Source: Nitrosopumilus sp.
GTDB lineage: Archaea; Thermoproteota; Nitrososphaeria; Nitrososphaerales; Nitrosopumilaceae
NCBI GenBank assembly: GCA_965218785.1
Contig: OZ244650.1
Coordinates: 864,001-928,000, forward strand
Length of the DNA stretch: 64,000 nt
Reading direction: 5' to 3'
Shown piece by piece: positions 35,365 through 62,124 of this stretch (position 1 is its first letter; every line of letters starts with the position of its first letter). The notes below the pieces were generated by a model. That model ran no database searches, was not told where the DNA came from, and worked only from the letters and a program-made list of their open reading frames with translations. The translations under genes were made by a program, and so were the position numbers.

Positions 35365-35411
35365 GATTCTGGTGCAAAACAATGATTAGATTACCAAAAT
35401 GCATCAGAATC
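35365..35411 (-). mobile_element. 47-bp palindromic IS6-type mini-element
   Basis: GATTCTGGTGCA...TGCATCAGAATC; same length and core as 36942-36988. Confidence 0.8.
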
Positions 35412-36941: not shown

Positions 36942-36988
36942 GATTCTGGTGCATTTTGGTGATCAGATCACTAGAATCCACCAGAACC
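36942..36988 (+). mobile_element. 47-bp palindromic IS6-type mini-element
   Basis: GATTCTGGTGCATTTTGGTGATCAGATCACTAGAATCCACCAGAACC is an imperfect palindrome. Confidence 0.85.
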
Positions 36989-59262: not shown

Positions 59263-59580
59263 CTAGGGGGCTTTCAGCTCTATTTCAGAATTACATGTGG
59301 GCAGATTGCCTGACTCGTCCCTGAATTGCTGGATTAACCGAATCTGGCGTTCTTTTGGATTGTCTGTAAACTCCCTTTGATATGACTGGGTTTTTTGCAT
59401 GCATTCGTTTCCCTCAAAATCCGTATCCACGTATTTTGTGAATCTCTCTTGCAGGTTTTCTGACTGGCCAATGTATATCACCTCTTTTTTCCTGTCATAC
59501 AATACGTATACGCCGGGAATTGATTTTACAAATTTGGCACTCTCCAGCCAAATCCTCATTTTATCCTCAAGTAACTGCAT
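59263..59580 (-). CDS. GIY-YIG nuclease family protein
   Basis: PGVYVLY..VIYIGQS.NLQERF...LPTCN. Confidence 0.85.
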   Translation of the reverse strand: MQLLEDKMRIWLESAKFVKSIPGVYVLYDRKKEVIYIGQSENLQERFTKYVDTDFEGNECMQKTQSYQREFTDNPKERQIRLIQQFRDESGNLPTCNSEIELKAP

Positions 59581-59851
59581 ACTATGCGATACTTCTACTA
59601 GATATTAAACTAAGGTACAATATACCTGATATCTGACTTTTTTAGCACCGAAGATCTGTATCTTTTGCTTTTTTGATTTTGTAATGTCAAATAATGATTG
59701 GTAATCTTGATCTAAAACAAACCTTGCAACAAAACATGCCTGATCTGAAATAACGTTTTGGAGCACCTGCGACGTAGTTTTGCCCCGTCGATCCCTTGAC
59801 CATCAGAACCGATTTGTACCATTCAACCATTCTGATCTTTGGGCTGCCACA

Positions 59852-60301
59852 GGTTCTGTGGATTCTAGTGATCTGATCCCCAAAATGCACCAGAACTCTC
59901 CATTACGACAAATACAGGTTTTAGAGGCGTAATAGAGAGAGAAAGTCAGTTGGAAATAGTGTGGACTGGGAATCGAACCCACGCCTAAGAGGTTTTAACT
60001 CATGATGCTACCATTACACCAAGAGCCCACCAGGTTTATTAAAAAATACAAAGTAATAATGTTGAGGTTTCAACTCTAAAACGCGCTAATTACATTGGCC
60101 TGGTTTTCCTTTCTGCCATCAGCCCACAGCTTTTGAAGAGAAAGGAAAACAAATTTTTGTTATATCTGAGGATTTGATGCAGGGTAGGTTGTTTCAACTA
60201 GTAAAAGATTGTCACAAACCGGCCCTGCAATTTTTCTCTATCTGGTTTTATTCCCAGGTTCTGTGGATTCTAGTGATCTGATCCCCAAAATGCACCAGAT
60301 C
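59852..60301. mobile_element. Miniature pseudo-compound transposon: two direct mini-elements around 360 bp of cargo
   Basis: 45 identical bp at 59850-59894 and 60255-60299; flanks CTGCCACA (59844-59851) and CTGTCACA (60302-60309) match at 7/8. Confidence 0.82.
59959..60028 (-). pseudogene. tRNA-like sequence lacking a matching 3' acceptor strand
   Basis: GGGCTCT TG GTGT AATGGTA GCAT C ATGAG TTAAAAC CTCTT AGGC GTGGG TTCGATT CCCAG gives a canonical D/anticodon/T-arm layout. Confidence 0.7.
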
Positions 60302-60444
60302 CTGTCACATTCTTTTCTAAAGAAGATCGGCCATGTTTTAAATCCTGCCGCATATGCTGATCCGGATTGAAGCCAAACCCTGCAAAATCCCTGATATCAC
60401 AAGAACCTTCATACTTTTAATATTGTGAAAAAACATGATTAATA

Positions 60445-62124
60445 CTGTCCCTTTTAAAAAAATTCCCTGAAGCGTTTACTCCTAGAGAAATTCAAAAAGA
60501 GATCATCTCAGAGATCGAAGAAAAAATCGAGTCAGGATATAAGAAAATTATTTTATGTGCGCCCACCGGCGTTGGAAAATCCCTGGTGGGCGCCACCATC
60601 TCCAGACATTTTGACAGCTCCTTTACCGTGACTGCGTCAAAACACCTGCAGGATCAATACATCAAAGACATTCCCTTCCTTAAACCGGTAAAGGGCAAAC
60701 AGAACTTTCCCTGTCTCAAACTAATGTCCTCTGAAAAAGTTGACAGCCCCGTACAGGCCATGAGTTGGAGACTGACATGTGAAAAGGGACAGTGCCAGGA
60801 GAGGACAAGTAAAAATGGAAAGCAGGTAGTCGAGGTCTGTAAATTCAAACCGACAATCAAGCAGGTTGAAGAAAACACTCAGGACCCGCAGTCCTGCCAT
60901 TATTATCTGCAAAAATATCAGGCCCTTGCATCAAAACATTCCTTGTGGAATTATCATGCCTTTTTTCAAATCATGAAATTCAACAAAAAACTTTTTGAAA
61001 AATACCTTGATAGAAAGGTCTCCATTTTTGACGAGGCACACAAGATAGAAGATCAGATAATACAGTTTGTCGGGTTTGATATTTTTAGCCGCCAGATTGA
61101 TGAATGTAATCTGAATTCTGAAAAATATGATTTTACAGATTTGGATTCGATGATTCAACTAACTGACGATGTTGCCTATTCTTATGCCAATAAAATCAAG
61201 GACATAAAGGAAAGCCCCGCCTTTGAGAATAAACCTGATTATGAATTAATTACAAGCTTGGAGAGGCGTTATGACAGGGCCGCACAGGCAAAAATTGACA
61301 TCCTGTCTGATAAGGAGAATTTCATCGTAAATGATCCCGTAAAAGACCTGAATGGAAATTTTAGAACCATCTCTGTAAAGCCGATCGACGTTTCAAAATT
61401 TGCAAGTACTTTTTTTGACACCGAATATCAGATTTTCATGTCTGCCACTATTGACAAATCCAGTTTTTGTGATAACATGGGTCTAAAAAAAGACGATGTC
61501 GCATTCGTTGATACTCCAAAATCACCGTTTCCAATCGAACACAGAACAATCAGTCTTTTGAATGTCTGCCGCCTCAGTTATGGCTCTACTGAAGACGATG
61601 AGATTAAAGTCATAAAGGTAATTGATGAAATTTTAGACGAGCATTCAAATGAACGGGGACTGATACTGACTTCCTCCATTCCCCGGTGTCAGAAAATTCT
61701 TCGATACCTCTCACCAAAGAACACCAAAAGAATCAGAATCTGCCATAGTAAAAACAGAGACGGAAAGACACAGGATGAAATTATCTCCGAACATGCCTCT
61801 GATACTACGAGTGTTTTGCTGTCCTCCTCCCTGTGGGAGGGAGTGGATCTAAAAGATGATTTGTCAAGATTCCAGATTATTGCAAAGGTGCCATACCCAA
61901 ATTACAAGGAAAAGAGAACAAGGGCAAAAATGGATAAATTTCCCACGTGGTACACATCTAAAACCCTGACCAAACTGCTACAGGGATTTGGCCGTTCAAT
62001 TAGGAGCAACGATGACTGGGCCAAGACCTATGTTCTGGATGCTGCTGTCAATAACGTGTTTTTTAAGGCACAGCAGATGATTCCAAAGGCATACTATGAC
62101 GTTTTAGGAATGGAGGATCCCTAG
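60445..62124 (+). CDS. XPD/Rad3/DinG-family helicase (probable CTG start)
   Basis: Q motif PREIQ and Walker A APTGVGKS lie upstream of the track start; Cys cluster, DEAH, SAT, LWEGVD, QGFGRSIRS. Confidence 0.93.
   Translation: MSLLKKFPEAFTPREIQKEIISEIEEKIESGYKKIILCAPTGVGKSLVGATISRHFDSSFTVTASKHLQDQYIKDIPFLKPVKGKQNFPCLKLMSSEKVDSPVQAMSWRLTCEKGQCQERTSKNGKQVVEVCKFKPTIKQVEENTQDPQSCHYYLQKYQALASKHSLWNYHAFFQIMKFNKKLFEKYLDRKVSIFDEAHKIEDQIIQFVGFDIFSRQIDECNLNSEKYDFTDLDSMIQLTDDVAYSYANKIKDIKESPAFENKPDYELITSLERRYDRAAQAKIDILSDKENFIVNDPVKDLNGNFRTISVKPIDVSKFASTFFDTEYQIFMSATIDKSSFCDNMGLKKDDVAFVDTPKSPFPIEHRTISLLNVCRLSYGSTEDDEIKVIKVIDEILDEHSNERGLILTSSIPRCQKILRYLSPKNTKRIRICHSKNRDGKTQDEIISEHASDTTSVLLSSSLWEGVDLKDDLSRFQIIAKVPYPNYKEKRTRAKMDKFPTWYTSKTLTKLLQGFGRSIRSNDDWAKTYVLDAAVNNVFFKAQQMIPKAYYDVLGMEDP

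Follow-up and report, generated by a model that had tools for sequence, protein, structure and literature searches.

Organization of the locus

The 64,000-nt stretch of Nitrosopumilus sp. DNA analysed here (the window: C1:864001-928000, where C1 is contig OZ244650.1, in a host genome of 1,994,795 bases with 40.6% G+C) contains a pair of very short direct repeats with the tips of IS6-family insertion sequences (ISs), which enclose a tRNA-like sequence and belong to a family of ~47-bp elements. Positions 59850-59894 recur exactly at 60255-60299 as a 45-nt repeat, both copies on the + strand, with a start-to-start spacing of 405. The repeat has two matches in the window at up to three mismatches, a count reached in 0 of 100 shuffles, and its genome-wide count is also two. 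An earlier interpretation of the letters alone (the sequence-only reading) took the pair for two ~46-bp palindromes, identical over 45 bp, that form a gene-capture unit mobilised by a transposase supplied in trans. The exact direct repeat stands, but palindromy is limited to the terminal 7-10 bases and a GATC-type core; the 360 bp between the repeats do contain a tRNA-like sequence, as claimed.

When element boundaries are placed by the best fit of two 10-nt tips, the locus resolves into a 451-bp unit (59852-60302) of two direct element copies and 359 bp of enclosed DNA:

59844-59851, + strand: putative 8-bp target duplication, left copy (CTGCCACA), 7/8 identical to 60302-60309
59852-59897, + strand: mini element copy 1, 46 bp, with tips GGTTCTGTGG (left) and CACCAGAACT (right); nhmmer E-value 1.2e-13
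59898-60256, no strand: enclosed cargo, 359 bp, with no open reading frame (ORF) of 60 aa or more wholly within it
59962-60028, - strand: decayed accessory tRNA-Phe gene, with anticodon AAA not GAA and 4 nt missing from the 3' acceptor strand
60029-60061, - strand: conserved A+T-rich stretch upstream of the tRNA-like gene
60257-60302, + strand: mini element copy 2, 46 bp, differing from copy 1 in the last three bases alone
60302-60309, + strand: putative target duplication, right copy (CTGTCACA), its first base shared with the last tip base
59801-59811, + strand: what is left of another right-hand tip, the third (CATCAGAACC), with 40 bp separating it from copy 1; weak nhmmer match at 59800-59814 on the - strand

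Unlike the ISs of an IS26-type pseudo-compound transposon, the two 46-bp copies hold neither an ORF nor a transposase. Both carry private variants that are unique in the family: one G missing in the left tip, and ATCCCC. The 8-mers that the sequence-only reading had picked out as a target duplication do lie immediately outside the unit, although the duplication is imperfect (7/8, with a 1-base offset), the right 8-mer starting on the final base of the family consensus tip. The flanks of each copy taken singly do not match; it is the outer flanks of the pair that agree at 7/8. As a separate observation, the same 13 bases (TTTGTACCATTCA) lie 1-2 bases past a right-hand tip at two unrelated sites (window 59812-59827 and C1:1416974-1416990), which could reflect either a target preference or a carried-over flank.

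The enclosed tRNA-like sequence

The cargo contains the remains of an accessory tRNA gene. Its tRNA-like sequence scores 27.8 bits against the Rfam tRNA model (gathering threshold 29; E-value 0.0081) with the 3' acceptor strand unpaired, and ARAGORN made zero tRNA calls in the whole window. Positions 59898-60158 are homologous to tRNA-Phe loci in several genus genomes, and the homologues in G161, G157 and G154 are called as tRNA-Phe(GAA) at 57-60 bits. The tRNA-Phe of the host itself (C1:1043326-1043400) shows no sequence relationship to the cargo copy, which therefore derives from an accessory, A+T-rich tRNA-Phe gene family. Judged by its letters, this accessory tRNA-Phe(GAA) gene is dead in the cargo, which contains no working gene.

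Other decayed copies also lie beside elements. A second one in the host (C1:1344535-1344700) adjoins a degenerate element half, and in G151 a decayed copy abuts an element at nearly the same junction as at the locus, with a second element 1.1 kb off. The A+T-rich stretch at 60029-60061 is nearly identical in the host paralogue and in G151 and is probably the promoter of the tRNA-like gene.

Several side observations touch this accessory gene and its surroundings. The 72-nt, A+T-rich tRNA-Phe(GAA) family occurs in 1-3 copies in several genus genomes (among them L084 1504-1575, L087 1546-1617 and L091 1502-1573), and in G154 an accessory tRNA-Phe and a mini element lie ~50-95 bp apart. The cargo also contains a perfect 12-bp inverted repeat with a 24-nt loop (60103-60150), upstream of the tRNA-like gene. 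About 1 kb from the second tRNA-like copy, and adjoining a fragment of a transposase gene (C1:1343298-1343499), a sequence resembling a C/D-box small RNA (C1:1343549-1343623; L032 1550-1624) matches Rfam sR1 at 28 bits, where the threshold is 45.

A family of ~47-bp elements

The two copies at the locus are members of a larger family. A search with short-word BLAST and then nhmmer (E<1e-3) located 40 sites in the 2.0-Mb genome, 37 of them outside ORFs of 100 aa or more. A typical copy (C1:1360118-1360164) starts GGTTCTGGTG and ends CACCAGAACC, with a GATC-type core mid-element, and symmetry is confined to this core and the terminal 7-10 bases. Both ends are IS6-type tips (GGTTCTG.. and ..CAGAACC), as first proposed: the element consists of two such ends back to back around a shared GATC-type core and codes for nothing. 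A 12-nt tip with up to one mismatch occurs 71 times in the genome, versus 6 times for its reversed control. Two subtypes differ by ~7 bases in the left half, and the window also contains the following members:

35365-35411 (C1:899365-899411), + strand: family member, second subtype
36942-36988 (C1:900942-900988), - strand: family member near the consensus

The family is patchily distributed. A degenerate 47-nt pattern matched 14 of 150 other genus genomes, with many copies in G151, G158, G144, G154 and G145; a strict 40-nt pattern with up to three mismatches had zero matches in 24 same-genus and 16 same-order genomes. No clean empty site was found for one element or unit among the genus genomes, the intergenic DNA of the nearest species being too diverged. 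The elements are short, non-coding and multicopy, and share their tips with the inverted repeats (IRs) of larger transposons over the first 7-9 bases, all of which are traits of a MITE, or miniature inverted-repeat transposable element. Two of them lie near tRNA genes, 148 and 159 bp off: C1:1043132-1043178 (tRNA-Phe) and C1:1481412-1481456 (tRNA-Arg, at 1481615-1481690).

Could the 47-bp sequences instead be intergenic signals of the host, such as protein-binding sites, hairpins like repetitive extragenic palindromes or terminators, with pairs simply marking gene ends? Their intergenic placement, the conservation of centre and both arms across species, and the lack of target duplications at single copies would all suit such a role. 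However, the element folds as a single strand no better than shuffled sequence (z -0.97), its presence in the genus is patchy, and its tips equal those of true transposons that make 8-bp duplications. Flank duplications around pairs, and the unrelated accessory genes that the pairs bracket (AbiJ, AAA ATPase, ClpP-like protease, GNAT), also argue against it, and we regard a host signal as very improbable.

A putative source of transposase

The host genome encodes a candidate transposase for these elements. Two of its genes carry the IS240-type DDE domain of Pfam. One, intact (C1:1217304-1218698), encodes a 464-aa protein with SWIM and zinc-binding or HTH parts at the N-terminus; it matches DDE_Tnp_IS240 at 45.4 bits (cut-off 27) over profile positions 4-137 of 139, and among NCBIfam models it scores highest with that of the IS6 family transposase (107.5 bits, under the curated cut-off of 125). 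The gene sits at the right end of a 6,050-bp transposon (C1:1212865-1218914), 290 kb from the locus, with perfect 24-bp IRs starting GGTTCTGTG and an exact 8/8 target duplication (CCCGTCAT). A full IS6-like transposase with the same tips, which the earlier interpretation had called for, is thus present in the same genome. The passengers of this transposon are an N6/N4 DNA methylase, a 369-aa ORF and a bPH/SHOCT protein. The second DDE copy (C1:1739899-1741097) is broken and has no GGTTCTG tips within 2 kb; beside it, at C1:1741630-1741854, lies a short ORF with a tandem WRLTS peptide repeat.

A one-genome-per-species scan with the 464-aa protein returned 74 loci (L094-L167), nearly all in Nitrosopumilus, Nitrosopumilaceae or Thaumarchaeota records. 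By script, 21 of the 74 have tip pairs 1.1-7.0 kb apart with IRs matching at 22-24/24 and 8/8 duplications; one further locus has a 19/24 IR with an 8/8 duplication and another a 22/24 IR with a 7/8 duplication, and several genomes contain at least five transposon copies. In G144, three near-identical copies of the DDE gene share a 2,120-bp segment without GGTTCTG ends. The tip pairs, matching IRs and exact duplications at the 21 loci point to an active, cargo-carrying IS6-like transposon family in Nitrosopumilaceae, which is large and apparently undescribed.

In the available text of PMC7986276, the IS6 family is described as making 8-bp repeats, as having GG tips with cTGTt (and caaa) motifs, and as forming pseudo-compound transposons always with direct copies, and one passenger-carrying member is named. 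The transposon IRs found here start GGTTCTGT, with GG and the cTGTt motif; the caaa motif occurs in some of them, such as L148. In size and content they depart from a compact IS (~700-900 bp, a single gene, no passengers), being 1.1-7.0 kb long and cargo-carrying.

Paired elements and their flanks

Target duplications appear to differentiate paired from single elements. For each pairing, we set the 8-base flank beyond the left tip of the first element against the 8-base flank beyond the right tip of the second, and tolerated an offset of one base in either direction. Among neighbouring pairings within 6 kb, 7 of 27 had outer flanks matching at 7/8 or better, versus 5 of 1490 non-neighbour control pairings, none of which reached 8/8, and 0 of 40 comparisons between the two flanks of one same element. 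Counted by hand, 6 of 17 consecutive pairs had matching flanks:

C1:15268-18200, direct pair: 2,933 bp, flanks 7/8
C1:37123-38356, inverted pair: 1,234 bp, flanks 8/8 (GCGCCTGA)
C1:631120-631747, direct pair: 628 bp, flanks 7/8
C1:818525-818617, two abutting elements: 93 bp, flanks 7/8
Unit at the studied locus, direct pair: 451 bp, flanks 7/8 with a 1-base offset
C1:1414681-1416973, inverted pair: 2,293 bp, flanks 7/8

Other species contain such units as well. In a sample of 12 consecutive pairs, chosen for showing neighbouring matches, two had matching flanks: a direct pair of 2,361 bp in G158 with 8/8 flanks (CGAAAACC), which carries an ArsR-type HTH protein, and a direct pair of 700 bp in G154 with 7/8 flanks. 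The expectation that other pairs with duplications would exist was borne out, with five more in the host genome and these two elsewhere, at 7-8/8. Paired elements also tend to be close relatives: for 9 of 19 elements the physical neighbour is the nearest or joint-nearest sequence, and partners tend to have private variants in common. The genes between paired elements, whether or not flanks match, are unrelated accessory genes, including those for an AbiJ-type protein, an AAA ATPase, a ClpP-like SDH protease, a GNAT protein and several proteins without a Pfam match. A further pair, inverted around an AbiJ-type gene (C1:55311-56237), lacks matching direct flanks. The same 14 bases (AGATTGAAATTAAA) instead lie outside both left tips, a pattern suggesting that an element had been duplicated in inverted orientation together with its flank.

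A simpler history would dispense with transposition of units: the pair at the locus could stem from local duplication or gene conversion of older elements, with CTGCCACA and CTGTCACA alike by chance. The flanks indeed agree imperfectly and with an offset, an empty site for the unit was not found, and elements cluster in places: C1:816-819 kb has five of them in 3 kb, and flank matches are mostly lacking there. However, a match of 7/8 or better is rare among the control pairings, and the pattern recurs at the five other host pairs and the two in other species, including two with exact 8/8 flanks. Moreover, just 45 of the 405 bp are repeated at the locus, hence no tandem duplication took place. 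A local origin with a chance match seems quite improbable.

Capture of adjacent DNA and a possible route

Evidence of capture comes from the 628-bp unit at C1:631120-631747. Its 534-bp interior is 89% identical to DNA of G151, compared with 72-82% for the flanking core genes. The G151 homologue adjoins one degenerate element at the same junction, and the homology ends exactly where the second element starts in the host genome. This pattern fits that expected from excision of one element together with adjacent DNA, followed by re-insertion.

Taking tips, paired flanks and captured DNA together, we consider it likely that the ~47-bp sequences are mini, non-autonomous IS6-like elements that form pseudo-compound capture units and are mobilised in trans; in the exact route of transposition our confidence is lower. 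In the route that we propose, the SWIM/HTH/DDE transposase (IS240-type, IS6-like) of the larger transposons would recognise the 47-bp element in trans. A single element could first copy itself nearby, releasing a circle composed of one element and the intervening DNA; this would leave the donor element with a new flank and no duplication. Copy-in transposition would then fuse the circle with a new target, duplicating both the element and 8 bp of target. The fusion may finally persist as element-cargo-element without being resolved, because 47 bases would be too short for efficient homologous recombination.

Alternatively, the whole 451-bp unit may have moved as a non-autonomous compound transposon by its outermost tips, with no one-element circle, and the identity of the two copies would date from an earlier duplication or gene conversion. 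The inverted-partner units C1:37123-38356 (8/8) and C1:1414681-1416973 (7/8) are explicable only by use of the outer tips, and each 47-bp element has a tip at both ends, so internal orientation need not matter. By contrast, six of the eight flank-matched units are direct pairs, as an IS26-type route predicts, and the partners in direct pairs share private variants. Furthermore, the G151 homologue of the 631-kb cargo lies beside one element only and continues past the point at which the second begins in the host. For the unit at the locus, movement by the outer tips seems unlikely, and we favour capture by way of a one-element circle. The inverted duplicated pairs, which do not fit the circle route, suggest that whole units can also move by their outer tips.

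Several observations weigh against a trans-mobilised capture unit. At the locus itself, the outer-flank match of 7/8 with its 1-base offset becomes 6/7 without the offset, and no empty site was found for the 451-bp unit alone. Across the genome, 11 of the 17 consecutive pairs show no duplication, and the inverted partners in two of the flank-matched units would be impossible from a simple cointegrate. Single elements lack the target duplication that an ordinary MITE should have (0/40 here and 0/21 in other species at 7/8 or better), which means that intramolecular events are needed to explain them. No circle and no 405-bp excision joint appeared in the assembled contigs, which break at repeats. 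Finally, the transposon IRs and the element halves are clearly alike over the first 7-9 bases only and then differ, and the 1.5 kb around either DDE gene contain no GGTTCTGGTGCAAAA-type end, even with up to three mismatches. The intact transposon has its ends outside that 1.5-kb range, and one transposon end, in L120, matches the right half of the element at ~19/24 positions by hand count.

The surrounding insert

The unit lies inside a larger insert, bounded as follows:

59621-60393, no strand: lineage-specific insert of ~770 bp holding the unit; the genes on its two sides, GIY-YIG and XPD-like helicase, are contiguous in relatives
59618-59633, + strand: imperfect 16-nt direct repeat bounding the large insert, left copy (88%; relatives have one copy)
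60383-60398, + strand: the same repeat, right copy

The neighbouring genes, for a GIY-YIG protein (59266-59580, minus strand) and an XPD-like helicase, are both kept in nearly all 150 genus genomes. At least nine relatives show an empty site for the ~770-bp insert, with 6-15 unaligned bases between the two genes, and the insert has no counterpart at the loci of seven relatives. The empty allele anticipated by the sequence-only reading was recovered for this large insert but not for the unit by itself. Within the insert, the flanks of the unit (59634-59851 and 60303-60382) have no counterpart in the 150 genus genomes bar short unrelated matches, and for this reason the pre-insertion site of the unit could not be found. 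A 27-nt segment of the insert (59670-59696) recurs at 93% identity in more than 20 other genus genomes, in unrelated places. At the inverted unit C1:37123-38356, the gene flanks are conserved in G154 with a spacing that fits an empty site, and the intergenic DNA is too diverged to align.

Three sequencing runs of two studies (X1, X2 and X3) have contigs that span 59865-60284 and with it the unit interior and both junctions, and in run X3 a contig of depth 3 joins 59620 to 60394, the empty form of the large insert. Two short-sided contig joints, from 59896/59897 to 60263, probably stem from other copies of the family. The three findings that would have told most strongly against the sequence-only reading (no transposase, no other pair, no empty site) were not obtained, the empty site being that of the whole ~770-bp insert; its trans-mobilised capture unit is supported, with movement in trans presumed.

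Integration by an integrase in or beside a tRNA gene is another way to read the locus, with the 45-nt repeats as the attachment sites attL and attR. A tRNA-derived sequence does lie between exact direct repeats of typical attachment-site length, and the ~770-bp insert is bounded by the imperfect 16-nt repeat that relatives have in single copy. This is nevertheless the least probable explanation of those considered here: the 45-nt repeat belongs to a 40-site family and does not overlap the tRNA-like sequence, which is itself unrelated to the host tRNA-Phe, and no integrase gene lies in or beside the unit.

The helicase gene to the right has a peculiarity of its own. Its frame is open from 60440, the first ATG, GTG or TTG lies at 60586, within the Walker A region, and an ATG at 60436 is in another frame. 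An unusual start codon is probably the reason, rather than a frameshift, because relatives share the spacing.

Relation to known elements

The circle route resembles the translocatable-unit model of IS26. Direct copies around cargo, an outer 8-bp duplication and GG tips with GGTTCTG are, as far as the available accounts of IS26/IS6 pseudo-compound transposons go, common to those transposons and the units described here, as is the frequent lack of duplications at single copies after intramolecular events. Unlike the ~800-bp ISs with transposase of the IS26/IS6 type, the flanking copies here are 46-47 bp long and contain no gene, and the transposase would come from elsewhere: a 464-aa archaeal protein with SWIM and zinc-binding N-terminal parts, known here from sequence.

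Non-autonomous relatives of IS6 have been recorded before. The available portions of two sources give two IS6-family MITEs in ISfinder, of 227 and 336 bp (PMC7986276), and the IS6-family MITE names MITEBth2 and MITEHarch3 (PMC6807381). Like the elements described here, MITEBth2 and MITEHarch3 have both IS6-type ends and no transposase; they are five to seven times longer, a comparison made by description and not by sequence, and those portions mention no cargo-carrying pairs. In bacteria, composites bounded by MITEs include the TIME-COMPs of Tn3-derived elements and 439-bp MITEs around an Acinetobacter integron, in the parts available of PMC13367494, PMC4133298 and PMC3934969. There, too, two non-autonomous mini copies bracket cargo and are thought to be moved by a transposase in trans, but as described these belong to Tn3 and other families and measure hundreds of bases, whereas the present elements are 47 bp long, IS6-like and archaeal, with defence-type genes and a tRNA pseudogene as cargo.

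Archaeal MITEs, which are likewise short, non-autonomous elements in intergenic DNA, are recorded in Sulfolobus, Halobacterium, Haloquadratum and Desulfurococcus, and the list in the available part of PMC10969869 names no Thaumarchaeota. The text of a 2019 survey of thaumarchaeal mobile elements contains neither 'MITE' nor the whole word 'IS6', its supplementary IS lists, possibly with IS6-like entries, aside (PMC6563490). Full-text literature searches, with supplementary tables outside their scope, returned nothing on such elements in Thaumarchaeota. What is new is the small size, the archaeal host and the repeated evidence of capture; IS6-derived MITEs themselves are already known.

Implications

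The ammonia-oxidising archaea of the Nitrosopumilus group rank with the most abundant of marine microbes, and their gene exchange is little understood. If the elements are mobilised as proposed, an IS6-like transposase would need only ~23 bp per end, and IS26-style capture, familiar from bacterial antibiotic resistance, would also work in archaea with the transposase supplied in trans. The units would then be an archaeal, trans-transposase counterpart of the translocatable units of IS26, with repeats too short to be resolved by homologous recombination. Such capture would move defence-type genes (AbiJ, AAA ATPase, protease, restriction-modification) as well as tRNA genes. Elements of 47 bp fall below the size limits of most MITE finders and may therefore be routinely overlooked elsewhere. 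More tentatively, and with somewhat less than even confidence, we suggest that the two-tip 47-bp sequence may be both the minimal working substrate of an archaeal IS6-like transposase and a gene-capture device, whose circles would give rise to element-cargo-element packets that shuttle defence and accessory tRNA genes between Nitrosopumilus species.

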